Shown here: positions 2,501 to 41,474 of the stretch, in pieces | How positions within the stretch are numbered: the first letter of the stretch is position 1 | Layout: the number at the start of each line of letters is the position of its first letter | NCBI GenBank assembly: GCA_032718475.1 | Contig: JAUCBJ010007250.1 | Location: 585 to 64,584, forward strand | Direction: 5' to 3' | DNA from: Nemertoderma westbladi | Taxonomy: Eukaryota > Animalia > Xenacoelomorpha | DNA length: 64,000 nt | Notes under the pieces: model-generated | The model's database searches: none | What the model saw: only the letters and a program-made list of their open reading frames with translations | Told to the model about the DNA's origin: nothing | Program-made: the position numbers and the translations under genes

Positions 2501-2766
2501 TATCTGAACAATCTGAGCAGGGTCACACGCCTTCTGCTCAATATTAGCCTACTAGAAAATAAAACCGACAGAAATAGGTAAAATCTCAATAAAAATTCAG
2601 GGCTGCAGTCCCTGATTAAGTACTAAGACCTACCAGTATACAATAATCAAATCGAATAATACTAAATGTACTTGTACAGCAGTACCGGTACCGGTTATGA
2701 CAGTTAGGCCTACTGACCTACAGAAGTACCGGTTCTTTGCAACCCTATTGCCTACTGCAATAAGAT

Positions 2767-2779
2767 TATAAACTGTTAC
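2767..2779 (-). promoter_or_regulatory. Non-tRNA primer-binding site of C (GTAACAGTTTATA), complementary to LTR 3531-3543
   Basis: + strand TATAAACTGTTAC (2767-2779) and GTAACAGTTTATA (3531-3543) are a perfect 13-bp inverted pair; the site abuts the LTR. Confidence 0.75.
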
Positions 2780-3928
2780 TGTTCGCGCTTTTGAAGACCT
2801 TTAGCAGTTTAACCCGCCAAAATTTATATGTCTTTTAGTTAATTAAAACACCTTTAGCATACGACAATATTTTATGCTAATACGCAAAACATTAGCCGAA
2901 GGCAGCCCATGCGCGATCATTCACCCGATGGATCTACACCCGGGAGGCTGAATTCGGATGCTTAAATTTTATTATTGCAGTGTAAGGTTGCAGTGTAAAC
3001 TTACTGTATTATTCGATAGATCGTTAATGATTAATTTCTGACAGATATTATTGGCTTTCGGGAAATATTAACAGTTCCTTTAGGACGTGGCGCTCTATCT
3101 ATTTAAACAGAACTAGGACTTATACTAAACGCAACGATACTGCTTATGATTAAAGTATAAAGCGTATTCTTTAGGAAATACTTTGTTACCAATCACAATC
3201 ATACACACTATTCTGCCGACCGTCAGTATATTTGATCACACATAAAGAGAGCAGTAATTGACTCATGTAGTGTCTGCTAAATAACATTAGATTCAATACA
3301 CACCACATTAATATAAATCGCAATTGTTATGTATAGCCGGTCTCTCTAACCTGTAGTGTATCAAGAAAATTGGGAATTTGGGTGATTTATCCGTATTATC
3401 CAAAGAGCAATATTTCCATCAACAAATAGGTACAATTAATAACTGACGGTAAATAACAGTACAAACAATATGATTAATGCAGTTAAATTAAGTGAGATAG
3501 TGAGTTCGTTCGATTAGTGAGATTAGTTTGGTAACAGTTTATACTTTCGATAATTTAAGCAGTTTTACTAGAGTTTCTAGAGCCGGTGTTTCTGGCTTAG
3601 ACAGCAATAACAACAAAGTATCAAGTAAAAACAGTAAGACTGAACACTCTCCTTATGATCGGCCGAAAAGCTACACGTCGACAGGAAAAATCGCTCTGAT
3701 TGGCTCAAGCCAAACAAAGAACCATGCGTCCAATGGCTGTTTCCATGTCAGCAACCAGCTGTTAGATGTCGTAATATGAATCATCACGGCTAAGCTGTGA
3801 AAGGTAGTTGGTGCATTGCAGGTTTTTTGCCTTACCATGTCCGCCAAAACACGTATATAGCAGAATGACTTTTATGTCCGTTAAAACACCTGTAACGGTA
3901 CCTTGCGGGCGAGGGGAATATATATACA
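2780..3928 (-). repeat. 5' LTR of element C
   Basis: Homologous to B LTR 4640-5743 (shared blocks such as AATATTAACAGTTCCTTTAGGACGTGGCGCT and AAAATCGCTCTGATTGGCT); ends ...GAACA on the - strand at 2780. Confidence 0.75.
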
Positions 3929-4634: not shown

Positions 4635-4639
4635 CATAT

Positions 4640-5743
4640 TGTTCGCGCTTTTAGACCTTTAGCAGTTTAACCTGCCAATTTTAGTTGTCTTCTTGTTTAT
4701 AAATCGACTTTAGCCTAGACCAATTATTTAATGTACTGAAGTTACATCCGCCGAAGCCAGTCTGTGCGCGATCATTCACCCACAGTTAAGGGAGACTGGA
4801 TTCGGGTGCTTTGAAGTTATTGCGGTGCAGACCTACTGTATTATTCGATTGATAGTTACTATATAATCTCTGACAAATATATTTACTTTCGGGGAAATAT
4901 TAACAGTTCCTTTAGGACGTGGCGCTTTAAGTATAAAAACAGAGTTATGACTTATACTAATCACAACTAGATGGCTACTGAGTTTCGTAAATAGCGCATT
5001 CTTTAGGAGATGCTTTATTATCTGTCACACTACTTCACACGACTTCACACTACTGCACACTGATCTGCCGACCGTCACTGAATTTGATCATATATAAGGA
5101 AGATCGCAACTGACACTTGTAGGGATTATGAAATAGCATTTAATTCACACAAAAACCACTATAATTTAAGTCGCAGTTGCTACCGGTAACCTGTTCCTCT
5201 CACCTTCAGTAATCAAGAAGATTGGGGGTTTTATGATTATTCATCGGTATTCTCCAAATATATCAGCAATATATATCCATATAACAACAATTAATAACAG
5301 AAGCAAATAATGCGGTGAACAATCAGTATGTGTTACGTAATGCATTGAGTTGTGTTATTCAGTATGTATGCAGGATAATAGATTTACGTTCTTGTAATCA
5401 AAGCCATCAGATGTTTAGGCCAAAGTCTGAAACTTCCAAAACAGAAGCACAGAAGAATTCTAAGCCGGTTATCTGGCTCAGAAAGGTAAACAAAGACCGT
5501 AATGCATTGCGCAGTTTTCCATAGGCCCCTGTTCAACATAAAATGAAAATCGCTCTGATTGGCTGAGCAGAACAAAGAGGTTCCACGTCTACAGGAAATC
5601 AGCTGACAGATTTCGTCATCTGAGCTCAAATCTTTTAGAGTATTATGCGCATTGCGGCAAAAATGACTTGTTATGTCCGCTAAAGCACCTACACTGTGCA
5701 TTGCGGGGAAAAATGACTTGTTATGTCCGCAAAAGCTTTTACA
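4640..5743 (-). repeat. 3' LTR of element B (1104 bp)
   Basis: Near-identical to 40645-41474; preceded on the - strand by the PPT. Confidence 0.95.
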
Positions 5744-5821: not shown

Positions 5822-6801
5822 TTAGTCCTTCTTACGTGAACGGCGTTTACGAAGTTTTTTGAGGCTAGCAAGAGTCCTTTTCTCTTTGGGGTGAGCTACT
5901 TTACTAGGAGGGCTATAACTCTTGGGTGAGGGGTGCAATACAATTGCATCGGAAGGTTTAGGGTTACAGTCGGTGTATCCGCCGGTCGAGGTACCCGGTT
6001 GATCGATATCAACCTCAGTGGAACGAGGTCGAACAACCTTCAGAGCGCGTTTCAAGACAGCAGCTCTTACTGGTCCCTGACGAGTCGTCTGCACGAGAGC
6101 GGTAGGCGGACCGTGAGTAGTGCAAAATTTCCTCGGTTTGATGGTTCTTTCTAACTCGCATTCTCGGGCTCTATATTCATAGGGTCGTCTATGAACTTCC
6201 TGTAGTTCTGGATGTGAGTTGATGAACAAGTCACCATATTCTGGATTTTGACGGATGAAGTTGATCAAGTTATAGGAATTAAGGTCATTAGGATTGATGT
6301 TCCTGAGATACTTGCGAACAAATTTGGTCGAAATATTCTCGCCAATGCGTTTCATTAGCTCGTAGCTCCGTGTACGAGATTTTTGCTCAACCGAAGCAAA
6401 GAGATACGGGTGAAATGCATAAACTCCTTCATAGGCACGTCCAGGGTAGTATCGATGACGTGACTCGCAGTGGAGATCCGCGTTATCTTCCCAGGCTCGA
6501 ATGTAGCGCAGGGCAACCATTTCATCTACACTTTCCAGATCTCGGTTGAAAGGGCAATCAAAACTTGCGTGTCCTTTAAACTGGCAATGATGGCATTGAG
6601 TCATAAATTGAGGGCAGACTGCGAAGATGTGTAAGTTATTGAGTCTACAATACGCACAATAGATCTCCATTGTAGGTTGGTCTTGGAAGTAGGAGCAGGG
6701 TACGTTGGAGTCCACCGGGGTGAAGTGGTCTCGAGATGCGCATAATCGGCAACGTTTCCTAGAAACATAATTGGCATGCCGATAATCGTATGCAGTGAGA
6801 C
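5822..6801 (-). CDS. C-terminal part of element B ORF2 (zinc knuckles, basic tail), cut off by insertion of A
   Basis: CAYCRLNNLHIFAVC and CHHCQFKGHASFDC align with the A ORF2 knuckles. Joins in frame with 25750-26550 across the TSD (GPQCL|TAYDYRHANYVSRKRCRLC). Confidence 0.9.
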
Positions 6802-8722
6802 TATAGAATTATATTCCCTAAATGCCGTGGATTTTCAAAATTTTATTTTATTCGAATTAACTTTGTAAAGATTGCTTTGAGTTCTCATTAGTATTGGTTC
6901 TATCTATTATGCATCTATCGGTCAAGTGGTTCAGTAGCTCAGTCGGTAGAGCGTTGGAAATTATATGTGTAGTAGGTATCGAGTTCGAATCCTAATAAGT
7001 GCGAATTATTTTTTGTGCAGAATTTCAACTCATTTAAATTAACCGCTACAAATTAATTGCATTTGTCTGTACCAATGAGACCGTAGTTATTTGATTGTAA
7101 CCAATGTCGTGCAAGTTATATATTAGCTGGACCAATAGCTATCTTTAAAACCTTGTTAGAATCTATAGAACAATCGAGAATTTTCTCGATTGATTGCGGC
7201 ACAAATTTAGTATATAAAGGTGCGATTTCGTTCATTAGTATACTTACACAAACTAATTCAATCCATCATTCACTTTCTGTCTTATTTCAGATTACATTGT
7301 TTATTGTATAATAGTTATTATATCTTTTGTAATAAAAGTCAGAAATACTAGTCACATCTCAGCCCTTTTCTATCTGTTTTACTATGGTTTCACTACGGTG
7401 AACAAACTCAGGGACAGGATGGCCGGCTAGAGATCGGGCCGCAGCAATGAACGGGAACATCACGGGAATGTAGACGAGAGACAACCCGCAATACCATCTT
7501 AGAGTTATTCGCCCATCGCCTGAAAGGTTAGACAGCGTTCGATCCTTGCTACCTAAGTGTAAGACCAAAAGATCAAAGGTAGACGTAGTGACGCGCTGTA
7601 AGCCCAAAATTACATCATAAGGACTGTACTGTCTTGATTCAGGAAAACCCACAGTAGACCTTCACATTCCTACGGGGGGAGGGAGAGAGAGCAGATACTA
7701 GTATGCAGATAGGACGTAGGCACACCGGTACAAGGCATACACATTGGTTAGGGTGCAGCAAACTGTACGCTTAACTCTTGCTAAGTACAGGTGTGTGTGC
7801 GACTATTTGCCGTACAACAGTGTCCATTACATCAGAACTTGTAGGCTAGGGGGTTGCTGTGTTTTCACCTGAATTGGGATTGTACCGTTCAGGCGGTAGG
7901 GCAGTTTACGCTAGGCGCAAATAAATTGAGGCTATCAGGGATATACTAACATCTACCGTGTCCCCGCCAACGCCCTAATAGGAAGTTACCCGGACTACCT
8001 GGGTGACTAAAATTCTAGATAGGAGCCAGGATAGCTATTAGTACCCGTACGCCTACAGTAGTAAACTAACACATCTCTTCTTTGTATCAGGGACCTGGTA
8101 CCTAAAATTGCCGAATTCTGGGCGTAGTATTAACCTTATGCCTGAATTTGAGTCCTGGAAATACGCAAGAGGGGAAGGAACCTTATCATTCGTGAGTATT
8201 GGACCTACAAGTTATAAAATTAGAATATTCGTAAAATGCACACCGTACCCAGTAATTATATATGTGAAGGAGCAAAACTGTTTTTTGACCGTTCAGAATT
8301 AACACACGCGCGTTAGAAATTATTTACACCTCGAAATATATAAAATTAACTTAGTCCGTACTGTGCTTTGCCCGCTAGTTAGACATCTCCAAATCTGCTC
8401 TATACCTAGCTAGCGTCCCTTTGCCCAACCATATAAATCACACCGCGGCAAAGTATACGAGCCTCTTAGTCCGTCAGTGAGTCAGCCTGATTTTAGGATT
8501 CGCTGCGCGGGATTTTGTTTTATCGAAGTTTGTCTGCTCGTAGACTGTTTTCTGCCTCACCGGTTATAAGAGATCGATACTGCAATATATTCGCTTACTT
8601 TGGGTTTACTGTTTTGGTGAGAAGGTCGGATTTATGATTTGATTTACAAACTTTACAGTAGGATATTGCAGGTATTGTTACCGTCTCTTCCGATAGTAGG
8701 AATAGGCGTATCTCTTCAATTA
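6802..8722 (+). repeat. 5' LTR of element A
   Basis: Matches 23829-25749 with about 3 substitutions seen by eye; begins TATAGAA, ends CAATTA; TATA-like motif at 7211, AATAAA at 7331. Confidence 0.95.
6928..7014 (+). ncRNA. tRNA-derived Pol III cassette in LTR A (degenerate; second copy 23955-24041)
   Basis: A-box TAGCTCAGTCGG (6935-6946), B-box GAGTTCGAATCC (6981-6992), T6 run (7009-7014). Acceptor and anticodon stems do not pair, so it is not a functional tRNA. Confidence 0.65.
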
Positions 8723-8733
8723 GTAGGAATGTG
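8723..8733 (+). promoter_or_regulatory. Non-tRNA primer-binding site of A (GTAGGAATGTG), complementary to LTR 7663-7673
   Basis: CACATTCCTAC at 7663-7673 is the exact reverse complement; no TGG start. Confidence 0.75.
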
Positions 8734-9530
8734 TTTTACTGAACTACGGTTCGGTAGGACTAAAGTTATTTGAAAATTTTGTATTTTGAGGTAAAAATTT
8801 GTATTTGATTAGCTAAGTGCTAATTTTTTGAAATAAAATTTGATTTGAACCGCGTGTGAAGTATTTTGGAATTGAATACCGGTGTTTAAAAGGGTTTAAA
8901 TACCATATTGTACCGGTACAAAATTTTCGTAAAGTAAAACCTAACTCTTTTGTTTTTTCAGGATTCAGAACTCATTTCTAGGCTGTAACGGGAGCAAGAC
9001 CGTGTTTAGCAAGTTTGGGAGATAGATAACTCAACAACTTTGGTTGGGAAAATCGCGTTTCGTCCGCAACGTTAAAAACGGAAAGGTTCACGTTCGGTTT
9101 GTATCTGGGAATCTGTTTTTCTGGAGAATTATTGGAGTGGGTGAGTTCGAAAAGTTGCATAAATAAGTTAGGCATTACCGTATTAGTTAAAATTATTGTG
9201 GGTTCCACTGTCTCAAGTATTTATGCATTCCATATGATTTCTTTGTTCATTGCTGAATTAGTCCGTATTATTGTATTTAATTTACCCTTCGATAACGCAT
9301 ATCGTTATCCGATTTATTTGTTATAAAATTGGCCGCTAGGCTAATTTTATTATATACTTATTCCGTGACATTTATTTGCTGTAAAATTGGCCGTTTAGGC
9401 TAATTTTATCCATCTGCTATAAGATCGGCCGGTAGGCTAATTTTATAAGACTGTAATTAGTACCGTTTAGATAAAAATACAGTAAACTCGATACTTTGAC
9501 ACTCACTTCACTTGACTTACAACTACTGAA

Positions 9531-12500
9531 ATGAGTGACAAACAAGACTATACGAAGAATACACAAACCGACTATGACTCATGTGACGCGGATAAGTCAG
9601 CAGCGGAAGAACCACAGGGGAAGACTCGCGAGCCTACCGAACCTACACCGTGTGCGTCACCAGTACATCCAACGGGAGTACCGGATGCCGTAGTACGAGG
9701 CGACGGCAGGACCGAGGACTTTCTAACTGTTCCGCAACCTAGATATAGGGAAACGGAAATGGTAAGTTCAGCAGGAAGCACAGAAAGTGTGGTTAGAAGC
9801 GTCGGTGGTTACATGGCGCATATTACCAGGAGTATTGGAGAAGGCCAACGCATATTAGACGGGTTGACCGCTCCGATGTCTCGATTCGAGTTCTACACCC
9901 TCCAGGTTAGAGTACAGAGTAAAGTATATAAGTCCGTAGATAATCTAGTTGGCCTACAAGATCTAGCTAGACAGAGACAGGACATGGATACTCAACTTAG
10001 AATCCTCGAGAAACTAATGATCACTAGAGAGAAACTGATTCAGTTTAAGTCGACGATTAGACAGATACAACAGGAACAAGCGGACCAGTTGCTAGGTGAG
10101 TCAGTTTCGGACGAATTATTACAGCCCGAGGAAGAACAGGAACTGTACCGACTGGATGGACAATTGAAACACCTGACGGATCACTTGCGCATGTGCGGCG
10201 AAGACGTCGGGGATTGGGAAACCGTGCCGGAGGCTACGAGGGAAACTTCACTCGCACAAATCGAACTGGCACCGGGAACACTAAATCAATCACTGGTGAG
10301 TATTCGTAGCGAAATCTGCGAAGGAAGTATGGTCACGTCAGAAGTCGCTCGACAACAGCAAGAATTCTGCCGACAACGACAAGAAATGGAAGAACAAGCT
10401 CAACTTCTAGTGATGCAAGCAGCAGTAGAGGAAGAGAAGCTACGCGTTGCGAATATAGTAAGAATATCTCATCTACAGGAACAAGCTGAATTAGAAGCAG
10501 CTGAAGTAGAAAGGTTAGAGTTAGACATTGCCCGACAAGCGGCAGCGGCAGCGGCCGAGTTAGAGCGACAAAACGCGGCGGCCGAGTTAGAGCGACAAAA
10601 CGCAGCGGCCGAACTGGAGCGACAAACGGCAGCGGCAGCGGCGGAATTAAAACGAGAAAGGTTAGTCTCAGAAGCACGGGCCGAAATGAGAACACGGCAA
10701 ATAAAAGCTCAATCTGCTATACGACAAGCAGAATTTGAGGCGCAACAACGACAAACGGAACAACGAGAGAAGACAGCTAAACTTCATTTCGAACTTGAGA
10801 AGAAGGCGAGAGAATTAGCGAACGCTGAGGAAGATCTGGATCAAAGGGCCCGCGATCGATCGATGAGATCTCGTGACGGACATGATTTGGACCAGTTAGA
10901 GGTAAGACATCGCCAAATTCAGGAACGGAAGAAGGAAGGAAGCGTAGGAGCACCCGGACGGGAACGACAATTAGTAAAGGACGTGTGTCAACGATTCCCA
11001 CAGGTAACTCATATGTTTGCACCGGTTACGACTAAGGAACCTGTTTCGATTGCGGGTAGTAGTAACATTTCTCCTATCCATGGTGCGACGGAACACAGGT
11101 TTGTTATTCCGGACGAGTTTACACCGCCAAGAGCAACGTCGTCGCCTATTCCGAAAGTCAAGGTAAGTAACCCACCGATTACGGATCGTAGTAGTTTATT
11201 GACCGGACCTGCACTACTGACGACAAAACAGGTGAGTCCACCGTCGACACCTAAACCCGTTACACACTACGCTTACCCAATGACGTTTCGACCAACAAGG
11301 CCTTTGGATTCAAATGCTGTCACTCGACCACCGGTTCAGTTTACATCGCAATCTACGACTTCGAGGAAGACTTGTGAGCCTACCGAACAACGGAGAACAG
11401 TGGATACGCGACCGGTTCAGTTTACATCGCAATCTACGACTTCGAGGAAGACTTGTGAGCCTACCGAACAACGGAGAACAGTGGATACGCGACCGGTTCA
11501 GTTTACATCGCAATCTACGACTTCGAGGAAGACTTGTGAGCCTACCGAACAACGGAGAACAGTGGATACGCGACCGGTTCAGTTTACATCGCAATCTACG
11601 ACTTCGAGGAAGACTTGTGAGCCTACCGAACAACGGAGAACAGTGGATACGCGACCGGTTCAGTTTACATCGCAATCTACGACTTCGAGGAAGACTTGTG
11701 AGCCTACCGAACAACGGAGAACAGTGGATACGCGACCGGTTCAGTTTACATCGCAATCTACGACTTCGAGGAAGACTTGTGAGCCTACCGAACAACGGAG
11801 AACAGTGGATACGCGACCGGTTCAGTTTACATCGCAATCTACGACTTCGAGGAAGACTTGTGAGCCTACCGAACAACGAAAGCGAGACGATGTTCCGAAA
11901 CGAACCGTTAGAATTAGTACGACGCAACGGACGCGAGCACGTCGACCACCATATCCAGATGATAGTAGTACTTCGAGCGAATCGGATTACCCGAAACGCG
12001 AGGTATTTAGAACAGGGGCGGCCGATGAATACAAACGCGAGCGTTCAGACAACTCCTTTGCAGACAATCCTCCACAGAATACACCAACACAGAAGGCGTT
12101 ACAACCAACGGACGCAATTAGTACACAACAGTTCGCCGACATCCTGCGACCAGTTGTCAATAAGTTGGCTCAAATCGAGGAACGTCTGGAGGAAGGTTAC
12201 ACCGACAGTTCGAGAAACTCCGAATTCGAACCCAATAAACACCCGAAGGAACCACAAAGACCGGTACCTTCAAACCCCACATCGTATCAAAGAAAAACGC
12301 CAAGAAGGGAGAACAACAACCCGGTTGCCAACCAAGGACGCGAAACTTTGAACGTTGCCGAGGAGATAGCGAAATTCGCAGCCAGACAGGGATTGCCGGT
12401 ACAACAACCACCGAAGTTTTCCGGTAGCTCAAAACACTGGCATACCTTCGTAGACTATATCGAATCCCAGATCGCCGTGTGCGCCTTTACATCACGGGAG

Positions 12501-15500
12501 AAGTTCAATTACCTGCTCCAAATGTTGTCAGGAGAACCTAAACGTTTGGCGGAGACCTTCGTTGGTGTACCGGACGCTTTCGAACTAGCGTACGATCGTT
12601 TGACTTCGATATACGGAGGTACAGTGAGTATGGCCAGGTCAGTAATAGAGGAACTCTGTAAGGGAGGGGCTATCACTAAACCCGTCGACTTACTAAAACT
12701 GGCTGACGAGATTAAGAACGCTATCACTACCTTAAGATCAATTGGACAACTTGATTACGGGAATACCCCTACAGTTCTATTAAAGATAATAGGACGACTC
12801 CACCATCGACTTCGTCGGGAGTGGAGGAAGGTCGAATACCAGCGAGAGGAGCGAGGAGGATTCCTAAAATTAGAAGATGTGTACCTTTTAATATCCAGGG
12901 AGGCGGTAGTTGAAACTCGATCTAACTATACCGACCAGCACATCGTGGCAGAAGGGATCACACTGCCATCCTCCAACCGACAAAAACCCCAGACAACATC
13001 CACAAAGACGGCCACTTACGCCACACCGACGGAATCACGACAATTCTCAGACGGTAATAGAGTATCTGCGCCCATTGGAACGAAACAGACGAGACAGCAA
13101 CTCAGCGCCGACTTCAACGGCTGCCAATACTGCGAACATTTAGGTAAGCGGTATATTGGTCACAAGTTACGAGGTTGTCGACAATTTCGCGAGTTGAACT
13201 CAGAAGAACGACGGCTGCAGATACGGCCACTGGACTCTTGTTGGCGGTGTACGCGACACGGACACGTCCGTAAGGATTGCCCAAATACCGACACTTGTCC
13301 ATCCTGTGGACGCAACCACGACGGTCTGCTCCACACAGACAGCCACACGCCGACGAAACGCTTCGCCAGGGAACACCCGGAAGCAGCAGCGAGATGTGAT
13401 GCGGCCTACCGAAAACGAGAATCGAAAACGACTCCAACATTCGTGACCCATATAGAGGATTGCTTTTCAGAACAATCCGGATCGTCGGACGAAGAATCAG
13501 ACGACGACGAATATTCTAATGGAGACGAACAACCGTCAATCGCGCTCCTGACCACTGACCAACTGAAGGGATTCAGTGTAATCCCGATTAAAGTTACTGG
13601 CACAAAGGGGAGCAAAAGAATCTACGCGATTCTAGACTCAGCCTCATCTCACAGTTACGTGGATGAAAAGATAGCTGACGTCGTAACGGATCTCAGACAA
13701 GGTAAACACGTCAGTTATACAGTAAGTAGTATGCACGGCCAGCGTGCAATACCAGTGACACGAGTTAAGTTGGACTTAGACTCTCTTCTTCCAAAATCGC
13801 AACACAGCGAGAGGGAGAGGTCTTTGTTGCCCTTTAGAGATCTAACCTTTGCGGCCACGAAGGACTTTAGTAACCTACTAGGTCCAGTGCCGGAACAATC
13901 TCTGGAGGACCGTAAGTATTTCAGACACCTTGGTGTACCCGAATGTCCTGTCAATTATAGATCGGTAGCAATGCTGATCGGGACGGACCAATTCAACCTA
14001 CATCAGGTGTGGGAAACCAGACCATCGGCAGTTGTAGCGGGAAACGCATACGCCTGCAGAACGCCGATAGGGTGGTATACTCGAGCGCCTGTGCGCACAC
14101 TAGACGTAAGTGACGAGGAAGACGACGTACAGAGTACATGTAGTTTATTGACTACAAACTCAATTCATTCCTTTTCACACGACGTGAACCATACTACGCT
14201 ACAGTCGACAAAACATGACAGACGTGTAACTAGTATGATAAGTCACAAGGAGCAGCTAACCCACAAGGTGAGTTTAGAACTTGGGGAGAAGACGAATCAG
14301 CTAGAGATTCCATCGACGACAGATGATAGGCTTGCGAGTCTACCTACCCCAACAACCTCAACAGTGCCCGTCGATATCGACGATGACGCGTTGAAAATTC
14401 ATCAGTTGGAACAAGCCGCCTTGGACAAAGAATTAACGGAGAAGACTATCAGGTGGTTAGAACAAGATACAGCTGAACCTGGTAGCTACGAACCTTGTAT
14501 GTCGGAACAGGAGAAACAATCTCTGAAGATCATGGAGGATACTATCCGACAGACGGAGGACGGACATTACGAGGTGGGTATGTTATGGCGTAGCCAAAGT
14601 CCTAAACTTATAAACAACTACCCACTGGCTTTAAGACGTCTACACTCAATACGGCAACGTCTATTAAAGGACGAGAAAGCCCATCTGCAGTACAACACTC
14701 AGATGGAGACGTATTTGACGAAGGGATACGCTATCCGAATGACTAACCCGGAGCAAGTGACCGACCAGACATACTACCTGCCACATCACTATGTGAGACA
14801 TCCCGACAAACCAGACAAAGTACGCGTAGTCAATGACTGTGCGGCTCTGTTTGAGGGAATGTCCCTCAATAGTGAGTTGATGGATGGACCGAACATGAAT
14901 AATTATCTTATGGGGGTGATTATGCGCTTCCGTCAGCGTCAAGTAGCCTTTACTTGCGACGTTGAAGCGATGTTTCACCAAGTGAAAGCGTTAGAGCGAG
15001 ACAGAGACAGTTTGCGGTTTCTCTGGTATCCGGAAGGGGACTTAAGTCTACCACCAGCGACTTACCAAATGCAAGTTCGCGTTTTCGGTGCCAGAGACAG
15101 CCCAAATTGTACGATGTACGCCTTGAAGCAAGCCGCTAGAGATCAGAAACATTTGTATGACCCAGAGATAATTAGAATTGTAGAACGTGACTTTTACGTT
15201 GATGACGGTTTACAAAGTTGCGACACAGTAGAACGTGCTACAACAGTAGCACATCAATTACGGGACTGCTTGGCGGGCGGAGGTTTTAACCTCACCAAAT
15301 TCGCCTCAAACAGTGCCGAATTAGTTGACTCATTCGGAACTACTGAGCGTGGAGGTGGTGACATAGACCTAGAGTTCGAACCACTACCGACGACTAAGGT
15401 GTTGGGGCTCTTTTGGGACCCAAACACAGACAACTTTCGAGTGAAGGTGAGACTGGACAGTCAAGGAAACACACTGACCAAGAGATCATGCTTGTCAAAG

Positions 15501-18500
15501 TTGAGCCGATTGTTCGACCCGTTAGGATTCATCAGTCCAGTGATACTGCAAGCCCGCATTTATATGCGCAGTATATGGAAGGATGGACTAACGTGGGACG
15601 AGCCGATCTCATCAGACCAAGTGGACTTATGGAAGACCTGGGAGGCGGAATTGTCTTCGCTAGAGGATTATTTCATACCCAGGGTTTACTTTCCATTACA
15701 GAGTACATTTCCTGACAACTTAGAACTACACTGTTTTTCTGACGCCAGTGACAACGGTTTTGGTGTGGCAGCGTATTTGCGCAGACAAGTAGAATCAGAC
15801 GAGTTCGATGTTTCGCTCATTACTTCCAAGGCTAAGACCATGCCTACTAAGTATATGACGACACCACGAGCCGAGCTACAAGCCGCGACCCTGTCAACCA
15901 CCATCGTGAACCTCATACAGACAGAACTACAGTCGAGTTTACAGATATTTTATTGGACTGACGCGACGTTGGTTTTATTTTACATAAACAACGACACACT
16001 CGAATTCAAGACATTCGTAGCTAACCGTCGCGCAGAGATTCTAGACCGTTCGATAAAAGAGGATTGGCGACATTGTCCCGGACCACAAAACCCAGCTGAT
16101 ATTGCGTCGCGAGGAATGATGCCTGAGGAATTCTGTAAACCGGAGAACAAAGAGTTTTGGCAACACGGACCCCAGTTCTTGCAGAAATCGACACAAGATT
16201 GGCCTCCGCTATACGACAACAAGTCCAACACCATTCCTAAGGACGCCGAAATCAAGAAACCAAAAAAGGGGAAGACAAAGAAAAGGACAACGGCGGCGAA
16301 ACTAAAGAAAAAACCGAAGGCGAAATGGAAGGATATAACTTCAAAGGTCAAGAGAGGAAGACTTGCGAGCCTTTCTACACCAGACATATCGCCAGACGGT
16401 CGACCAGACATATCGCCAGACGGTCAACCAGACACTTTACTAGACAGTCAACCAGACATTTTGCCAGACATATCACAAAATGTTCCACCAGACGCTAGTA
16501 ACACACTGACAAACAGTAAAGCCGCAGTTTCTCTATTGGAGCGGCCTTCTATTGACAAACAACTAGATACGTTACCAGACGTATCGCCAGACACATTACT
16601 AGACAGTCGACTAGACACTAGTAATGTATTGACTAACGATAAAGCCGCAGTTTCCCTATTGGAGCGGCCTTGTATTGACAAACTACCAATTTTGACACAC
16701 TTGAGCAACCATAAGCACGGTGAAACCTCATGTATTACAGATGTGGGTAGTACCTACGCTAATGTAAATACAGGTGTTACTCTGCGCTCAAGAGACATAC
16801 CGAACTTGCAACCTATAGTGAGACCTGGGATTAATGTCGGCAGGAAAATAAGTTTACCGAAACCTGCTGACCCCATAGAGTTCAAACCACCATTAACGAT
16901 CGACTTACAAAGTACCGACAATCAAGGTAAGAAGACGAAGAAGGACAAATTACTTGTAGACCCGGACGGATCAACAGTCAACAAGGGAATACTTACCGGC
17001 GGACCCGTGGGCCCTTCTAGTAATTCAAAACCTTCCAAAATCTCCATTGACTTACCTGATGACGTCACAAATACTTACGTCGACCGAATTGTAAACTTAA
17101 CAGACTCTTGGTCGAACGCTTGCCGAAAATTAGCGTGGATTGTACGTTTCGTACAATACGTTAAAGGCAAACGTGACTTTACACGTCGACTTACATTGGC
17201 TGAGATTGACAGGTGTGAGATTAAATTAATTCGCCATTACCAACTGCGATATTTCGCGCGCGAATTCACATCCATAAATCAAGGTCAACCAATCAAGTCG
17301 TCACCGATACTGAGTTGGAGTCCGATTATTTATAATGGCTTAATTTGTCATAAATCTCGGCTTCAAAACATTGACTTTAACACAAACTTTAGGTACCCAA
17401 TAATAATACCGCAACACCACGAACTACAACGTGCAATGATACTGGACGCACATTTACATCTGAAACACGCTGGAAGACACCACTGTCTTTCCTACTTACG
17501 TACTAGATTTGTATTAATTAGACCCAGTAAAGCATTGAGTTCAGTGACACGTACGTGTATTATTTGTAAAAAGGTACATTCTAGAATAGGTACCCAAGAA
17601 ATGAGTGAACTATCACAAGCACGACTTCAAGCATTCAGACCACCTTTTACAGAGACTGGAATTGATTGCTTTGGTCCCATACATACGAAACGTGGACGTA
17701 TACTAGTAAAACGCTGGGGACTGATTTTCACATGTATGTCCAGTAGGGCAGTTCACATTGAACGTGTGATGGATCTTTCCACCAACGCGTTTATACTAGC
17801 ACTGCGGCGATTTATCGCTAGACGCGGACTAGTAAAATGCTTGTACTCAGACCAAGGGACAAACTTTGTTGGTGCTCGGAATGAGATTGCTAGAGCCTTT
17901 AAGAGATTAGATCATGATCAAATCTCGAACGAACTGCAACCTCACAAGATTGTTTGGAAGTTTAATCCTCCAGATAGTCCTTGGAGAGGCGGAGTCTGGG
18001 AGAGATTGATTAGATCTATCAAAACGGCCATGGCAAAGGTCATTCCAGTAAACCACATATTAACAGACGACCAACTGACAACATTGTTTGTTGAAATCGA
18101 GGCAATACTAAATACTAGACCAATAGTATTAGTACCCGATGACAAACAATCTCAGTTCGCTTTAACACCAGCACACCTGCTTATGCAGGCACCGACCACA
18201 TTGACGCCGATTTCCATTCCAATGGAAAGTGATAGTTACGGTAGAAAAGCGTGGAAAATCACGCAACTACTGGCTAACAAATTCTGGGAAATATGGCAAA
18301 ACCATTATTTGCCCTCTATTTCTGCCAGAACAACATGGTACAATAACACCCGCGCATTAAAGCCGGGAGATCACGTGCTGTTGGCAGAAGTGAATCTAAA
18401 AAGACGCTTCTGGATAACAGGTGTCATTTTAGCCACACATCCATCTATGGATGGAGTGACAAGAACTGTGACGGTACGAACAATTGACGGTCGTACAGTA

Positions 18501-18587
18501 GACAGACCAACTCAACGTCTCGTACTTCTTGAAGAGACTCGTAACGAGTCTGGAGACTACAAATCTCCACCTAATACTAGTAAATAA
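9531..18587 (+). CDS. gag-pol: BEL/Pao Gag-Pol polyprotein (3018 aa)
   Basis: Coiled-coil N-terminus; PPKFSG...W Gag core; triple Cys/His cluster (CWRCTRHGHVRKDC, CPSCGRNHDGLLH); protease AILDSAS; RT YYLPHH and FYVDDG; RNase H HCFSDAS, PRAEL, YWTDA; integrase GIDCFGP, YSDQGTNF, WERLI. Confidence 0.97.
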   Translation: MSDKQDYTKNTQTDYDSCDADKSAAEEPQGKTREPTEPTPCASPVHPTGVPDAVVRGDGRTEDFLTVPQPRYRETEMVSSAGSTESVVRSVGGYMAHITRSIGEGQRILDGLTAPMSRFEFYTLQVRVQSKVYKSVDNLVGLQDLARQRQDMDTQLRILEKLMITREKLIQFKSTIRQIQQEQADQLLGESVSDELLQPEEEQELYRLDGQLKHLTDHLRMCGEDVGDWETVPEATRETSLAQIELAPGTLNQSLVSIRSEICEGSMVTSEVARQQQEFCRQRQEMEEQAQLLVMQAAVEEEKLRVANIVRISHLQEQAELEAAEVERLELDIARQAAAAAAELERQNAAAELERQNAAAELERQTAAAAAELKRERLVSEARAEMRTRQIKAQSAIRQAEFEAQQRQTEQREKTAKLHFELEKKARELANAEEDLDQRARDRSMRSRDGHDLDQLEVRHRQIQERKKEGSVGAPGRERQLVKDVCQRFPQVTHMFAPVTTKEPVSIAGSSNISPIHGATEHRFVIPDEFTPPRATSSPIPKVKVSNPPITDRSSLLTGPALLTTKQVSPPSTPKPVTHYAYPMTFRPTRPLDSNAVTRPPVQFTSQSTTSRKTCEPTEQRRTVDTRPVQFTSQSTTSRKTCEPTEQRRTVDTRPVQFTSQSTTSRKTCEPTEQRRTVDTRPVQFTSQSTTSRKTCEPTEQRRTVDTRPVQFTSQSTTSRKTCEPTEQRRTVDTRPVQFTSQSTTSRKTCEPTEQRRTVDTRPVQFTSQSTTSRKTCEPTEQRKRDDVPKRTVRISTTQRTRARRPPYPDDSSTSSESDYPKREVFRTGAADEYKRERSDNSFADNPPQNTPTQKALQPTDAISTQQFADILRPVVNKLAQIEERLEEGYTDSSRNSEFEPNKHPKEPQRPVPSNPTSYQRKTPRRENNNPVANQGRETLNVAEEIAKFAARQGLPVQQPPKFSGSSKHWHTFVDYIESQIAVCAFTSREKFNYLLQMLSGEPKRLAETFVGVPDAFELAYDRLTSIYGGTVSMARSVIEELCKGGAITKPVDLLKLADEIKNAITTLRSIGQLDYGNTPTVLLKIIGRLHHRLRREWRKVEYQREERGGFLKLEDVYLLISREAVVETRSNYTDQHIVAEGITLPSSNRQKPQTTSTKTATYATPTESRQFSDGNRVSAPIGTKQTRQQLSADFNGCQYCEHLGKRYIGHKLRGCRQFRELNSEERRLQIRPLDSCWRCTRHGHVRKDCPNTDTCPSCGRNHDGLLHTDSHTPTKRFAREHPEAAARCDAAYRKRESKTTPTFVTHIEDCFSEQSGSSDEESDDDEYSNGDEQPSIALLTTDQLKGFSVIPIKVTGTKGSKRIYAILDSASSHSYVDEKIADVVTDLRQGKHVSYTVSSMHGQRAIPVTRVKLDLDSLLPKSQHSERERSLLPFRDLTFAATKDFSNLLGPVPEQSLEDRKYFRHLGVPECPVNYRSVAMLIGTDQFNLHQVWETRPSAVVAGNAYACRTPIGWYTRAPVRTLDVSDEEDDVQSTCSLLTTNSIHSFSHDVNHTTLQSTKHDRRVTSMISHKEQLTHKVSLELGEKTNQLEIPSTTDDRLASLPTPTTSTVPVDIDDDALKIHQLEQAALDKELTEKTIRWLEQDTAEPGSYEPCMSEQEKQSLKIMEDTIRQTEDGHYEVGMLWRSQSPKLINNYPLALRRLHSIRQRLLKDEKAHLQYNTQMETYLTKGYAIRMTNPEQVTDQTYYLPHHYVRHPDKPDKVRVVNDCAALFEGMSLNSELMDGPNMNNYLMGVIMRFRQRQVAFTCDVEAMFHQVKALERDRDSLRFLWYPEGDLSLPPATYQMQVRVFGARDSPNCTMYALKQAARDQKHLYDPEIIRIVERDFYVDDGLQSCDTVERATTVAHQLRDCLAGGGFNLTKFASNSAELVDSFGTTERGGGDIDLEFEPLPTTKVLGLFWDPNTDNFRVKVRLDSQGNTLTKRSCLSKLSRLFDPLGFISPVILQARIYMRSIWKDGLTWDEPISSDQVDLWKTWEAELSSLEDYFIPRVYFPLQSTFPDNLELHCFSDASDNGFGVAAYLRRQVESDEFDVSLITSKAKTMPTKYMTTPRAELQAATLSTTIVNLIQTELQSSLQIFYWTDATLVLFYINNDTLEFKTFVANRRAEILDRSIKEDWRHCPGPQNPADIASRGMMPEEFCKPENKEFWQHGPQFLQKSTQDWPPLYDNKSNTIPKDAEIKKPKKGKTKKRTTAAKLKKKPKAKWKDITSKVKRGRLASLSTPDISPDGRPDISPDGQPDTLLDSQPDILPDISQNVPPDASNTLTNSKAAVSLLERPSIDKQLDTLPDVSPDTLLDSRLDTSNVLTNDKAAVSLLERPCIDKLPILTHLSNHKHGETSCITDVGSTYANVNTGVTLRSRDIPNLQPIVRPGINVGRKISLPKPADPIEFKPPLTIDLQSTDNQGKKTKKDKLLVDPDGSTVNKGILTGGPVGPSSNSKPSKISIDLPDDVTNTYVDRIVNLTDSWSNACRKLAWIVRFVQYVKGKRDFTRRLTLAEIDRCEIKLIRHYQLRYFAREFTSINQGQPIKSSPILSWSPIIYNGLICHKSRLQNIDFNTNFRYPIIIPQHHELQRAMILDAHLHLKHAGRHHCLSYLRTRFVLIRPSKALSSVTRTCIICKKVHSRIGTQEMSELSQARLQAFRPPFTETGIDCFGPIHTKRGRILVKRWGLIFTCMSSRAVHIERVMDLSTNAFILALRRFIARRGLVKCLYSDQGTNFVGARNEIARAFKRLDHDQISNELQPHKIVWKFNPPDSPWRGGVWERLIRSIKTAMAKVIPVNHILTDDQLTTLFVEIEAILNTRPIVLVPDDKQSQFALTPAHLLMQAPTTLTPISIPMESDSYGRKAWKITQLLANKFWEIWQNHYLPSISARTTWYNNTRALKPGDHVLLAEVNLKRRFWITGVILATHPSMDGVTRTVTVRTIDGRTVDRPTQRLVLLEETRNESGDYKSPPNTSK
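11330..11878 (+). repeat. 81-bp coding tandem repeat (~6.8 identical copies, 27 aa unit) in gag of A
   Basis: Unit RPVQFTSQSTTSRKTCEPTEQRRTVDT; GGAAGACTTGTGAGCC recurs at 11365, 11446 ... 11851. Confidence 0.97.
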
Positions 18588-19248
18588 TTAGGAGTTTACA
18601 AATAGACTTCCACGTACCTGTACACCGTAGTAAGGACAGCGGTAGAATTCCATTGTCTTTATATGTGAACATTGAGGGTAGTACCCTTATGTGTCACATA
18701 GGAGCGGGATTTGTAGGTATAAGAAATGGAATTCTACTTGGAACTCACAATATTGAGACATTTTCGAAATTTTAGACAATCCATTTGGATTTGAAAAATT
18801 TTAAAAATTTTCTCCAGTGAATAGATTTCAGGGTACAGTCGGGTGGAACTTAAAATTAGAGAAACAAGAGAGGAAGACTTGCGAGCCTTTCTTAAAATTT
18901 TTAATTAAATTTTACACGGTCTTGTTTCAATAAGTTACGTCAAAATAGACTCACCTATATTTATTACTAATTCTTGATTGCTTATTTTCTGATAATAGTT
19001 TGGGATCAAAAGGTGAGTATTTTAGACTCACGGCCAGTTTAGCCCAAATTCGTTTTTACTTCGGCAAAAAATTTTAGATAAGAAGCAGCGTGTCATTAAA
19101 GAAACCCTAGATCTTAGGCTATGGGTAGGAGGTTAGAGCGTTGTCGAAGCCCAAAGGGCAGACGAAACTCTCACGTCTCCTCACAACTAACTACAAACTC
19201 TGTTGTATTCCCTCTAGTAGTAATGATTATGTAACTACACCTCTAATT

Positions 19249-22200
19249 ATGGAGAAAGGGACACAAGGAGAGCCAAGATGGGGATATGATATCCAAGAGG
19301 AGGCAGCAGCGCCATTCGAAAGATTTGGAGCCAAGGATTACACTATATTTGGTATAAAAGAATTATCGGAAAGTACAGCGAAACTCGCGAGAACTAAATA
19401 TGACTCGAATGTATTAAAGAGAAGGCAAAACGCATTAAACGAAAGAATCGAAAGTTTGCGCCAAACCTTCAACGAACTTTACCCGTACGATGCTTTGTGT
19501 GACACGGGAGACATTAGCGAAGACCCCGATACTGAAATTAGTCGTTTGTATCATACCATGCAATACCTAAAGGCGCATGAACCTATGCCTGCGGTACGCG
19601 ATGAATTCGATGGAATGCATCTTTACAGACGAACTCGAGGGGACGATAGAGAAACCAAGGAAGCATTTTCAGTTTATAAACTTTATTATCAATGCGGTTC
19701 TTGTATGCGCGAACAACGAAATGCGATTCCGATGCGTTTGAATAAGGAAAATCCCGAACCGATATTGGCGAGGTGTTCGAATCATCAACAACTACGCTAC
19801 CAGGAAGGAGGGTATCCTTTATCGAATCCATATCATTCATTTGCTATGACCGGACCAAAGGCGGGAGAAACTGTCATTTACCCACCTAAGGTTGTTGAAC
19901 CCGATGTATTTGAACTTACGCTGGACGAGGCGAATCAGTCAACCCGCGAAAAGAAAGAAGCTCTTAGCCTATACAGAGCCTACAAGGCTTTCGAGAAAGG
20001 TGAGATGGAAGAATGGGGTGGAAGACTCGCGAGCCTACCTTGCCATTGGACGTCACACGATCAAACTTCAGCTAAGGAGATGACACCGGAAGTTTTCGAG
20101 AGCATAAACTTTGCTCAAAACGTTATTCAGAGATTACAGATTGCATCCCCGGAGAGGCCAAGAGAAATGCAACCGTATAGTACTTCAACTACGAAACCAT
20201 TGAGTACGACACTCAATTTCCCTATTAGTATACCAGTCCGACAGGATACGACGTACGAAATACCCATCGTGGATCATCCAGAAATCATTTCAAACTTGGA
20301 GTTTCTTCCTGCAGTTGTTTTCAGCGATATGAGTAAGATATATGATTTGCGTAGACATATTACTCAAAAGGTCGTGAACAACGTTCCACCTCATATTCAA
20401 GATTTTAAGGAACTGGATAGAGCTGGTGCCGACATAGCTCCGAGTAATCTGAAAGGATATCTAACCAAGACGATTCGTTTATGGATTGGAATCGGAACCT
20501 TCGAGTCGGATACGGATATTGCCGCAGATTGGCGAGGTAAGGTTATTCGTTTCGATGAGGATAAGGATATAGAGAAGATTTGGCAACCTTCGGAAGAATT
20601 GTTGGATGAATGGACTAGGACGTTTAGATCGTTTCAGGAAAACGGTTATATGTTTTACGATAACGAGGGCGGCAGTCATCAGCAGAGTTTGACTTCTAAG
20701 ACTATACAGATTAGAGCGGCGGACGGAGTCCTGCACGTTTTCAGTAGACAGAGGAGCGACAAACGAATGCCGATACCTCCAGCGAATACAAAGCGACACC
20801 ATCTTATCACCGATATAGTAAAGAAGATGGACCAAGCTTGTAATATTGACGCTAGAATGCTACCGAAGATGGTAAGAAACATGATTTTAGATAAAACTGT
20901 TGTAAAGGTTGGATCAGGAGTAAGGGAGGATTTAATTAGCGACTTCGTTGGCATGACGGACAGCGATGACCGACTACCGACACCATACGTCGACACTCGA
21001 CCTCTTATTCTGTGGTCTATAGAACAGGGATATTTTCGTGAGTATAATACTCAGAAGACTGGAACTGGATACATTTCCTACCTGTTATTCAATTGGGATT
21101 ATAAGGAAGGTAAAAGAAACAAGTATATTGAAACTTATGGAGAAGGTGATACTCCAGATATGAGTGAGTTTGAATCACAGCTTAAATGGAGAGGATGCGT
21201 GTATTGGGCTATTACGTCACCTCCAAGAGCGGTCTTACAATATTATTTAGCGATAGAGTCGTCAGTGAATGTTTGCCTAATCGCCGACATCGTGTCTCGG
21301 ACTCTCAAAAGACATCCACTTTGTCTCGGAGAAGATCATACGTTCTACATGGAAGGGAGAATTCGTACCGACGTGTTTAGACGATTCCTTGAACCCTTCT
21401 ACAACTCCGACGCTCAGTGCAATGCCTTTACTCGAGCAGGATTTAGTATATTTCGAGACGTGTATCTTCGCTGTGCGGGATCTCTTATCGAAAGACCATC
21501 TATGTTTACACTGTTACCCTATGAAGGAGAACGTATCGTGGAGATTACGGATGAATCACGGCAGACGCGCGCGCCTATCGGTCACCTTGGTGATGAATTC
21601 GAAGTAACTACTACGATCGCCGACGATCCTTTAGAGGAACTTCTTGAGATAGAAAGGAACCTCCCGAAGAAATCTCAGACGGAGATTCGACAACTTGAAG
21701 CAACAGATGCTATAGTTTGCCTACAACCTTCAGAAACCTACCAACCCATAGACCCAGATGATTACGATTATAGTATGGGAGGAAGCGCTCGACCGATTGG
21801 AGATCTTATATACGAACGAGTGTGGTACCCTGCTAATACGATGTGTAGTAAATGTGGCGTCGCTGGACATCATATGGCAAAGTGCAGTGGAAAGCACATT
21901 ACTACGACTCAGCTAATCTGTGGATGGTGTGGGGATCAAGGGTCTCATACCTTTTATACTTGCTGGAGATTTATGGCTCAATGTACTTACTGCAATATAA
22001 AGGGACATCGAGCATCTGAATGCCAACTGAGAGACATACCTTATGAACATGAATCTGTAAAACTCGTGAGGAAGTTATTTGATGAGTGGGAAGATTTGGC
22101 CGACGAACATGTATCGGCACAGAGAAGACGGTTTCCGATGAGAGCGCATCTCGGATTTTGGGCGGTAAATCCCCAGACGATGATGTCGGAAGGATACATC

Positions 22201-22974
22201 TCCGCTATGCCCCAATATGACGAACTTATCGAGGTTGTTGATATTTTGCCCCACGACAGCGGATTCCGAGTGGTGCGTGAGTATCTGTTACAGATTCACC
22301 CAGATAACAAAAACACGTGGAATTTTCAGAAAGTCGTAAATCGTATCACGTATGGTGAATTTGATCGTTTCCGAACCGAAAAGCGGAATAAAGGAGCTTG
22401 GTTAACCGTCGCATGGGCGTACCGAGCCGCGTTTTACCATAAACGTATACGAGCGAGCGTATTCGAGGAAGAAGAGGTCCTAGAGGCGACGAATATATCA
22501 GCCACTCCGGTTGCGCCGTCTGCACGTCACCCTCGGGAGGACGGGCAGGGTAGGATCATACGGGTCCAGAAAGTGGGCCAACAATTGAAGAAAATTATTA
22601 ATGTGGAAGAACGCAAGGGAGTTGAGCCGACTATTCGAGTTACTCGGGATACGGTATCACTTCCAAGAGAACCGGTAGGAGGATCGGGACATACACCAGC
22701 TGATCAACAGGGGGCGCAAGCTACTCTTGGGTCTGCGTCGTCCACTCCTCGCGCGTTCCCAGACGTTCTACCAACTGTAGCGACAACTGATCGGTCACGA
22801 GGAATTGGTCGAGGTTTTGGGATGCCAAATAGACGAATTTGCGAGGAAATAGTCGCACCGTCTCTCAACGTCCCAAGTAAACCAGTGACTCGCCCCAATA
22901 GTCCCATATCGCGAGCAAAGTCACCTGTGCGCAGTTTTCGAGGACGCGGCAGGGCTCGATCTACTAAGCGATAA
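19249..22974 (+). CDS. Element A ORF2: DEDDy-like 3'-5' exonuclease fold plus three CCHC zinc knuckles (first ATG 19249)
   Basis: IQIRAADG, LPKMVRNMILDKTVVKVGSGVREDL, YVDTRPL, YYLAIES resemble WRN/EXD2-type exonuclease motifs in order. Knuckles CSKCGVAGHHMAKC, CGWCGDQGSHTFYTC, CTYCNIKGHRASEC. The ORF is certain; the domain call is by eye. Confidence 0.75.
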   Translation: MEKGTQGEPRWGYDIQEEAAAPFERFGAKDYTIFGIKELSESTAKLARTKYDSNVLKRRQNALNERIESLRQTFNELYPYDALCDTGDISEDPDTEISRLYHTMQYLKAHEPMPAVRDEFDGMHLYRRTRGDDRETKEAFSVYKLYYQCGSCMREQRNAIPMRLNKENPEPILARCSNHQQLRYQEGGYPLSNPYHSFAMTGPKAGETVIYPPKVVEPDVFELTLDEANQSTREKKEALSLYRAYKAFEKGEMEEWGGRLASLPCHWTSHDQTSAKEMTPEVFESINFAQNVIQRLQIASPERPREMQPYSTSTTKPLSTTLNFPISIPVRQDTTYEIPIVDHPEIISNLEFLPAVVFSDMSKIYDLRRHITQKVVNNVPPHIQDFKELDRAGADIAPSNLKGYLTKTIRLWIGIGTFESDTDIAADWRGKVIRFDEDKDIEKIWQPSEELLDEWTRTFRSFQENGYMFYDNEGGSHQQSLTSKTIQIRAADGVLHVFSRQRSDKRMPIPPANTKRHHLITDIVKKMDQACNIDARMLPKMVRNMILDKTVVKVGSGVREDLISDFVGMTDSDDRLPTPYVDTRPLILWSIEQGYFREYNTQKTGTGYISYLLFNWDYKEGKRNKYIETYGEGDTPDMSEFESQLKWRGCVYWAITSPPRAVLQYYLAIESSVNVCLIADIVSRTLKRHPLCLGEDHTFYMEGRIRTDVFRRFLEPFYNSDAQCNAFTRAGFSIFRDVYLRCAGSLIERPSMFTLLPYEGERIVEITDESRQTRAPIGHLGDEFEVTTTIADDPLEELLEIERNLPKKSQTEIRQLEATDAIVCLQPSETYQPIDPDDYDYSMGGSARPIGDLIYERVWYPANTMCSKCGVAGHHMAKCSGKHITTTQLICGWCGDQGSHTFYTCWRFMAQCTYCNIKGHRASECQLRDIPYEHESVKLVRKLFDEWEDLADEHVSAQRRRFPMRAHLGFWAVNPQTMMSEGYISAMPQYDELIEVVDILPHDSGFRVVREYLLQIHPDNKNTWNFQKVVNRITYGEFDRFRTEKRNKGAWLTVAWAYRAAFYHKRIRASVFEEEEVLEATNISATPVAPSARHPREDGQGRIIRVQKVGQQLKKIINVEERKGVEPTIRVTRDTVSLPREPVGGSGHTPADQQGAQATLGSASSTPRAFPDVLPTVATTDRSRGIGRGFGMPNRRICEEIVAPSLNVPSKPVTRPNSPISRAKSPVRSFRGRGRARSTKR

Positions 22975-40633: not shown

Positions 40634-40644
40634 AAATCTATTAT
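40634..40644 (-). promoter_or_regulatory. Non-tRNA primer-binding site of B (ATAATAGATTT), complementary to LTR 41380-41390
   Basis: + strand AAATCTATTAT (40634-40644) versus ATAATAGATTT (41380-41390; also 5375-5385 in the 3' LTR). Confidence 0.75.
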
Positions 40645-41474
40645 TGTTCGCGCTTTTAGACCTTTAGCAGTTTAACCTGCCAATTTTAGTTGTCTTCTTG
40701 TTTATAAATCGACTTTAGCCTAGACCAATTATTTAATGTACTGAAGTTACATCCACCGAATCCAGTCTGTGCGTGATCATTCACCCACAGTTAAGGGAGA
40801 CTGGATTCGGGTGCTTTGAAGTTATTGCGGTGCAGACCTACTGTATTATTCGATTGATAGTTACTATATAATCTCTGACAAATATATTTACTTTCGGGGA
40901 AATATTAACAGTTCCTTTAGGACGTGGCGCTTTAAGTATAAAAACAGAGTTATGACTTATACTAATCACAACTAGATGGCTACTGAGTTTCGTAAATAGC
41001 GCATTCTTTAGGAGATGCTTCATTATCTGTCACACTACTTCACACGACTTCACACTACTGCACACTGATCTGCCGACCGTCACTGAATTTGATCATATAT
41101 AAGGAAGATCGCAACTGACGCTTGTAGGGATTATGAAATAGCATTTAATTCATACAAAAACCACTACAATTTAAGTCGCAGTTGCTACCGGTAACCTGTT
41201 CCTCTCACCTTCAGTAATCAAGAAGATTGGGGGTTTTATGATTATTCATCGGTATTCTTCAAATATATCAGCAATATATATCCATATAACAACAATTAAT
41301 AACAGAAGCAAATAATGCAGTGAACAATCAGTATGTGTTACGTAATGCATTGAGTTGTGTTATTCAGTATGTATGCAGGATAATAGATTTACGTTCTTGT
41401 AATCAAAGCCATCAGATGTTTAGGCCAAAGTCTGAAACTTCTGATGACTTGTTATGTCCGCAAAAGCTTTTACA
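40645..41474 (-). repeat. 5' LTR of element B (830 bp; lacks ~275 bp present at ~5437-5712)
   Basis: Direct comparison with the 3' LTR; the missing part includes the CCAAT-box region. Confidence 0.93.

Follow-up and report, generated by a model that had tools for sequence, protein, structure and literature searches.

Self-priming of LTR retrotransposons is exemplified by Tf1, whose primer is the first 11 nt of its own RNA and is complementary to a site by the 5' LTR, according to the part of PMC7175516 that deals with priming. The corresponding part of PMC6317226 describes self-priming for the Tf1/sushi group and predicts it for Tcn1 and for the TAR lineage of copia elements, and the passages on self-priming in PMC3601003, PMC5443660 and PMC5006619 concern only gypsy-type elements or a hypothetical ancestor. 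According to the ICTV, a host tRNA primes the replication of BEL/Pao elements, a process that is poorly understood; their PBS is 18 nt long and complementary to the 3' end of host tRNA-Arg or tRNA-Gly, their LTRs measure 0.2-1.2 kb and their genomes 4.2-10 kb (PMC8742986). We found no published report of BEL/Pao self-priming in the literature searched, whose scope ended short of supplements, Repbase, GyDB and subscription papers. Term look-ups in the main text of the BEL/Pao papers PMC3118150, PMC554778, PMC6238403 and PMC8556966 gave no mention of a PBS or tRNA.

We analyzed three BEL/Pao elements, A, B and C, in a 64,000-nt stretch of DNA, the whole of which we call the window. A is a young copy, and it lies inserted within ORF2 of the older element B. 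The elements and their main parts are:

6802-25749, + strand: element A, 18.9 kb
6802..8722, + strand: 5' LTR of A, 1,921 nt, with TA..TA ends
9516..18587, + strand: gag-pol of A, a single open frame of 3,023 codons
23822..23828, + strand: polypurine tract (PPT) of A; the identical 7 nt precede the 3' LTR of B
23829..25749, + strand: 3' LTR of A, from comparison of the LTR pair
41474-4640, - strand: element B, an older copy with broken reading frames
40645..41474, - strand: 5' LTR of B, which has lost 274 nt internally, the CCAAT block among them
30293..38283, - strand: gag-pol of B, split into several frames
4640..5743, - strand: 3' LTR of B, 1,104 nt, TG..CA
2780..3900, - strand: 5' LTR of C; start approximate, 3' edge from alignment with B

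The two LTRs of A differ at 3 positions in 1,921 nt and the element is flanked by a 5-nt TSD (6797-6801 and 25750-25754); B also has a 5-nt TSD, and its LTR pair shows 9 mismatches. Pfam domains in the gag-pol of A comprise DUF1759, Peptidase_A17, Integrase_H2C2 (a zinc finger) and DUF5641, and the RT carries a YVDD motif; DUF1759, Peptidase_A17 and Integrase_H2C2 were found in pieces of B. Homology searches gave 410 homologs at E <=1e-20, with PF05380 in 120 of the 120 matches listed, and the closest named RT relatives among the matches listed come from marine invertebrates and fish (~40% identity). Judged by their Pao-type Gag-Pol domains, PR-RT-RH-IN order, paired LTRs, PPT and TSD, A and B are BEL/Pao elements (Belpaoviridae). 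C runs off the window edge and has no RT inside the window; B and C are related, about 70-80% alike, and C is assigned to BEL/Pao by its DNA similarity to B. One sequencing run, made up of contigs of uncertain kind and only conjecturally RNA, reached 28 of the 30 bins of A and contained neither RNA ends nor LTR joints.

Several other features of the window were recorded. The gag of A contains an 81-nt perfect tandem repeat (27-aa units; 11249-11977, + strand), the gag of B contains repeats of 9-18 nt at 37062-37760, and the pol of B has an internal duplication at 29441-32341. Outside these elements, a LINE-like non-LTR element (48952-53159, + strand) encodes an endonuclease and an RT domain within 50503-53159, and ahead of these lies an ORF of 463 codons that has no Pfam match; a 1.1-kb element at 47483-48593, with 65-nt terminal inverted repeats made of 15-nt units, is MITE- or DNA-transposon-like; and a 455-nt tandem array lies at 42108-43416.

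The original prediction was that A, B and C lack a tRNA site and that the bases adjoining the 5' LTR pair instead with a segment of the element's own LTR. The features concerned, with a Ty3/gypsy element of the same window, are:

8723..8733, + strand: PBS of A, adjoining the LTR, without TGG
7663..7673, + strand: putative self-primer of A, the complement of the PBS; it recurs in the 3' LTR, at 24690-24700
40634..40644, - strand: PBS of B, adjoining the LTR, without TGG; imperfect pairing may extend ~8 nt further
41380..41390, - strand: putative self-primer of B; second copy in the 3' LTR at 5385-5375
2767..2779, - strand: PBS of C, adjoining the LTR, without TGG
3531..3543, - strand: putative self-primer of C, 13 nt
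53132-58349, - strand: Ty3/gypsy element with 282-nt LTRs, a 5-nt TSD and a TGG-type PBS

We found that the perfect PBS-LTR pairings claimed for the three elements are exact at the positions proposed for them. They are also flush with the LTR boundary, as had been claimed, with the complement at offset 0 in all three elements and spanning 11 nt in A, 11 nt in B and 13 nt in C; the LTR edges of A and B were fixed from the LTR pairs and TSDs, independently of the pairing. No TGG occurs in the first 12 nt after the LTR of A, B or C, which upholds the claim that a TGG site is absent, and on this ground a PBS of the ICTV type (18 nt, for tRNA-Arg or tRNA-Gly) was not found in any of them. The Ty3/gypsy element, which serves as an internal control, has a TGG-type PBS.

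Simulation agreed with the claim that such matches are improbable by chance, as the needed word appeared in 6, 15 and 4 of 20,000 simulated LTRs (order-2 Markov) for A, B and C, and the observed length was reached in 2, 0 and 0 of 147 downstream control windows. The segments sit 360-860 nt into LTRs of 1.1-1.9 kb. Between the sites of B and C, 4 of 11 positions differ, and each change is mirrored in the element's own LTR. Both the B and C segments lie 175-190 nt past a shared CCAAT block and 735-751 nt ahead of the LTR end; they fall in the worst-aligned 100-nt block of the LTR alignment (47% identity), so they may not be orthologous base by base, and our reading does not rest on this pair by itself. 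Together, these analyses establish that pairing of the site with the element's own LTR is a real feature, well beyond chance.

We also considered other sources of a primer within the window and other features at the site:

6910..7004, + strand: degenerate tRNA-like segment in the LTR of A, a pattern match that excludes the putative primer; copy near 23937-24031
8734..8759, + strand: predicted hairpin directly after the PBS of A, z -3.3
2742..2766, - strand: predicted hairpin directly after the PBS of C, z -2.2

ARAGORN at default settings found no tRNA genes in the window. The tRNA-like segment of A, the only pattern of its kind in the window, has an A box and a B box, both intact, with a T run behind them; it was detected by ARAGORN only at a lowered threshold and was missed at default and by Rfam. 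We rejected it as the primer, as the near-complements of the A site in the window consist only of the two LTR copies and one site in ORF2 with 1 mismatch; it is possibly a Pol III promoter or an insulator. Likewise, we rejected the idea that the primer coincides with a ribozyme or some known RNA family, since an Rfam search of 2500-9600 returned only two chance microRNA rows. A hairpin adjacent to the PBS is not a general feature of these elements (z below -1.5 in only 3 of 22 families). No splice junction that would lengthen the primer was found in A, B or C. By eye, a donor-like site near the LTR end of A and an acceptor-like site at 8960-8961 flank the PBS (8672-8961, + strand); a gag-pol mRNA spliced there would be without the PBS.

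To extend the comparison to relatives, we scanned metagenomes with the RT alignment and kept the best 80 of at least 533 confirmed stretches (loci labelled L001 onward); viral contigs scanned gave no loci. Within these best 80, the LTR 3' end could be fixed in 9 families by comparing the 5' and 3' LTRs. Absence of the complementarity from sister families had been set beforehand as the finding that would count against self-priming, and the outcome did not refute it. A complement of 10-15 nt to the own LTR, located 2-4 nt after the LTR, is present in 7 of these 9 families, against 9 of 1,764 control windows (from the 9 families and A-C) with 10 nt or more. L035 showed no own-LTR match and was assigned to neither type, and L046 carries a TGG site and lacks a self-complement, the best being 4 nt. 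For the majority of the other loci the site could not be located, often because the contig had no LTR.

A cross-test of 18 families (A-C and 15 relatives from the best 80 of at least 533, 8 of the 15 having been chosen because they matched) showed an own-LTR match of 10-15 nt in 18 of 18, while only 4 of 306 foreign pairs reached 10 nt and none reached 11. The 18 families have 18 different sites, of which 17 begin with GT, B being the exception. We placed 81 of 82 element rows and 10 named homologs on a quick IQ-TREE RT tree, leaving out L075 as short. Self-pairing families from among these best 80 stretches occur on both halves of the marine BEL/Pao tree. The relatives L046 and L049, both with TGG-type sites, sit as a pair among self-pairing families, and A groups with B as its sister (SH-aLRT 99), both on long branches amid elements of marine invertebrates. 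As judged from these sequences, the trait is common to many marine BEL/Pao families and is not peculiar to A, B and C.

In 5 of the 7 pairing families with a fixed LTR end (from the same best 80 of at least 533 stretches), the complement becomes continuous only once a predicted GT-AG intron of the LTR is removed. The last 6-7 nt of the split complement follow a pyrimidine-rich AG acceptor, and the rest precedes a GTAAGT donor 72-164 nt upstream. We also ran a blind scan of the 59 loci among the best 80 that have at least 150 nt before the coding region. A junction match of at least 11 nt across GT[AG]AG..YAG was found in 12 of the 59, with the site starting GT in 12 of 12, and four wrong pairing rules used as controls gave 2, 1, 0 and 3 loci. 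Contiguous own-LTR matches in the same scan were not enriched (13 loci, compared to 10-16 in controls), so we treat L003 and L070 as weak cases; the contiguous cases L018 and L023 have fixed LTR ends. The contiguous match of L065 is backed by a precise loss, since this element lacks exactly the 168-nt intron of its sister L063. In L041, L056, L058 and L064, only the acceptor-side 7 nt could be matched with confidence, to a site that starts GT after CA or TA; these loci were left uncounted, the donor side being missing or uncertain in their contigs. We predict that the primer is built by splicing in most relatives, and no description of an intron-spanning primer was found in the literature searched.

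A and B carry a second ORF beyond gag-pol:

19129..22974, + strand: ORF2 of A, 1,281 codons, with a DEDDy/EXD2-WRN-like 3'-5' exonuclease-like domain (~residues 500-720) and three CCHC knuckles (residues 906-965)
25777..26547, - strand: exonuclease-like part of ORF2 of B, 27% identical to ORF2 of A; interrupted by the insertion of A
6254..6673, - strand: zinc-knuckle part of ORF2 of B, on the far side of the insertion of A

With residues 430-760 of ORF2 as the query, 24 of 30 Atlas matches were to DNA_pol_A_exo1 (0.92). A 5-sequence profile matched EXD2 at E 7e-4 and WRN at 0.43, a match that belongs to the profile and not to A alone. The ExoI DxE and the ExoII D align with three homologs, and at the acidic position of ExoIII (YxxxD in DEDDy enzymes) both A and B have Glu in place of Asp. 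Homologs among 1.84 billion representatives amounted to 5 matches, including three unnamed singletons with an exonuclease-like domain and knuckles; word-based homolog searches with ORF2 gave nothing new and ORF2 has no Pfam match. AlphaFold models of ORF2 were too poor to use (pLDDT 31 and 42), and Foldseek returned no match for them. Where the sequence of a self-pairing relative extends far enough past pol, no long ORF follows (the longest stop-free stretches measure 14-152 aa). As most self-pairing relatives thus lack one, we regard ORF2 as an extra of this lineage and not as part of a general mechanism. By its domain resemblance, the enzyme could trim RNA to the edge of a duplex.

We next consider where RNA might start relative to the putative primer, for which two features of A are needed:

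7211..7216, + strand: clearest TATA-like box of A, preceded by three CCAAT motifs; putative function
7920..7925, + strand: AATAAA of A, a motif downstream of the putative primer

The clearest TATA of A does lie about 450 nt upstream of the segment, which is the distance given in the original prediction. An AATAAA at 7331 precedes the segment in A, and none was found upstream of the segment in B or C; downstream of the segment, the motif is present in A and C, and in B in the 3' LTR only. Neither B nor C has a TATA 30 nt upstream of the segment, and in the relative L005 a TATA box, read by eye, lies ~31 nt before the first paired base. Given the distant promoter and the AATAAA at 7331 in A, and the lack of this TATA in B and C, the segment of A-C may be located away from the RNA 5' end, unlike that of Tf1. 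We looked for a conservation step that would mark the U3/R border between the B and C LTRs and rejected this approach, as there is no clean step. The predicted pairing of A is 0.92 if the RNA starts at the segment and 0.0 from the start implied by the TATA; that of C is 0.92 from the segment start and 0.07 or less from starts 8-170 nt upstream; and that of B ranges from 0.003 to 0.75 depending on the assumed start. Predicted pairing is thus high only for an RNA that starts at or near the segment.

The self-priming reading of these sites is supported by the geometry, the covariation and the own-LTR specificity described above. We read the PBS as a self-primer site because it lies where minus-strand synthesis starts, replaces the tRNA site, has a Tf1-like length and changes together with its partner. 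It is rather probable that A, B and C prime minus-strand DNA with an RNA segment of their own LTR after a Tf1-like RNase H cut. In this mechanism, RNA started in the LTR would have the segment close to its 5' end, as transcribed in the case of A, B and C, and in most relatives after a small LTR intron has been spliced out. The LTR-derived RNA segment would then anneal to the PBS, the RNA would be cut just after the segment, usually after AC and probably by RNase H as in Tf1, and RT would extend the 3'-OH of the primer through U5 and R. R would begin after the segment and end at a downstream poly(A) site, and strand transfer to the 3' LTR copy would follow as usual. In the intron-bearing relatives, one may speculate that the unspliced 3' copy would be unable to anneal to the PBS and that priming would thereby be confined to the 5' end.

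A different origin of the primer 3' end in A, B and C would be that the ORF2 exonuclease shortens an LTR-containing RNA (genomic RNA from its 3' end, or a short transcript of the LTR) until it meets the primer:PBS duplex, with the zinc knuckles helping annealing. ORF2 is indeed found in both A and B and resembles 3'-5' exonucleases in the Atlas matches (0.92), in the EXD2 profile (E 7e-4) and in the alignment of ExoI and ExoII, and with likely promoters 100-450 nt ahead of the segment, a model based on the RNA 3' end would have an R region available for strand transfer. However, self-pairing relatives manage without a long ORF after pol, the AATAAA motif is absent upstream of the segment in B and C, and the enzymatic assignment itself is strained by the ExoIII Glu of A and B, the lack of a Pfam match, the unusable structure models and an EXD2 match that the profile makes and A alone does not. 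We consider trimming improbable as the source of the primer end. With the cut and trimming taken together, self-priming by LTR-derived RNA is likely on the sequence data.

The remaining readings dispense with an LTR-derived primer. Pairing between LTR and leader could serve RNA folding, dimerisation, packaging or translation control, with priming left to a protein or an unrelated small RNA. Covariation speaks for selection on pairing and not specifically on priming, the segment of A may lie far from the RNA 5' end, and a hairpin is predicted after the site in A and C, all of which would suit such a role. Yet the pairing lies at offset 0-5 after the LTR, the point from which minus-strand synthesis has to start, its 10-15 nt fit the 11 nt of Tf1, and it stands in place of the TGG site: L046 has a TGG site and a self-complement of at best 4 nt. 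We rate a purely non-priming role as quite unlikely. Priming by a host tRNA half or other host RNA, of the Osser or Bianca type, with the LTR match a coincidence or by-product, has a precedent in the half-tRNA priming of Ty1/copia elements discussed in part of PMC6317226. It is very improbable here, since 18 different sites each match their own LTR and almost never another, and a chance match is excluded by the simulations, the blind scan and the control windows.

Returning to self-priming with the element's own LTR RNA, one can combine these results into a broader, tentative picture that we hold to be possible but doubtful as a whole: tRNA-independent self-priming would be common, and possibly the main mode, in marine BEL/Pao elements; many would splice an LTR intron and so depend on the spliceosome; and the giant A/B lineage would have dropped the intron and gained a 3'-5' exonuclease that finishes the primer 3' end. 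If self-priming is confirmed, a third superfamily would use it across much marine diversity, and tRNA independence would be a recurrent strategy, not a yeast oddity. In that case, building a primer by splicing would tie reverse transcription to RNA processing in a new way. Regulation through tRNA supply and tRNA fragments would not reach such elements, and annotation software for which a TGG site is obligatory would overlook them or score them as incomplete.

Two features in combination set the elements described here apart: an intron-less putative primer deep in LTRs of great length, and an exonuclease-like second ORF. Cer7-type BEL elements of Caenorhabditis elegans are said to carry an element-encoded tRNA-like primer outside the LTR and an ORF for an RNase D-like exonuclease. 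If so, they would be a BEL/Pao precedent both for host-independent priming and for ORF2; their reported primer is tRNA-like and outside the LTR, whereas that of A, B and C is a short LTR segment. With the Belpaoviridae as defined by the ICTV, the present elements share the Gag-PR-RT-RH-IN order, Pao-type domains, LTRs, a PPT, a 5-nt TSD and an extra 3' ORF, but A differs in its 18.9-kb length, its 1.9-kb LTRs, its lack of a tRNA site and an extra ORF that is exonuclease-like and not env-like (PMC8742986). In the TAR lineage of plant Ty1/copia elements (Houba, Osr-1), self-priming has been predicted from a similar LTR complement, as related in part of PMC6317226; these elements differ in superfamily (copia) and host (plants), and that part of PMC6317226 mentions no spliced primer. 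The closest likeness in arrangement is to the chromoviruses Tf1/Tf2 of Schizosaccharomyces pombe, Tf1/sushi and Tcn1, which, in the relevant passages of PMC7175516 and PMC6317226, also have no tRNA site and a complement of ~11 nt to their own LTR abutting the 5' LTR. Unlike Tf1, the present elements belong to BEL/Pao and not to Ty3/gypsy, their putative primer segment lies 360-860 nt into the LTR, and in most of their BEL/Pao relatives the complement exists only across a predicted intron. A, B and C belong to BEL/Pao, not to Tf1/sushi, and their priming most likely proceeds as in Tf1.
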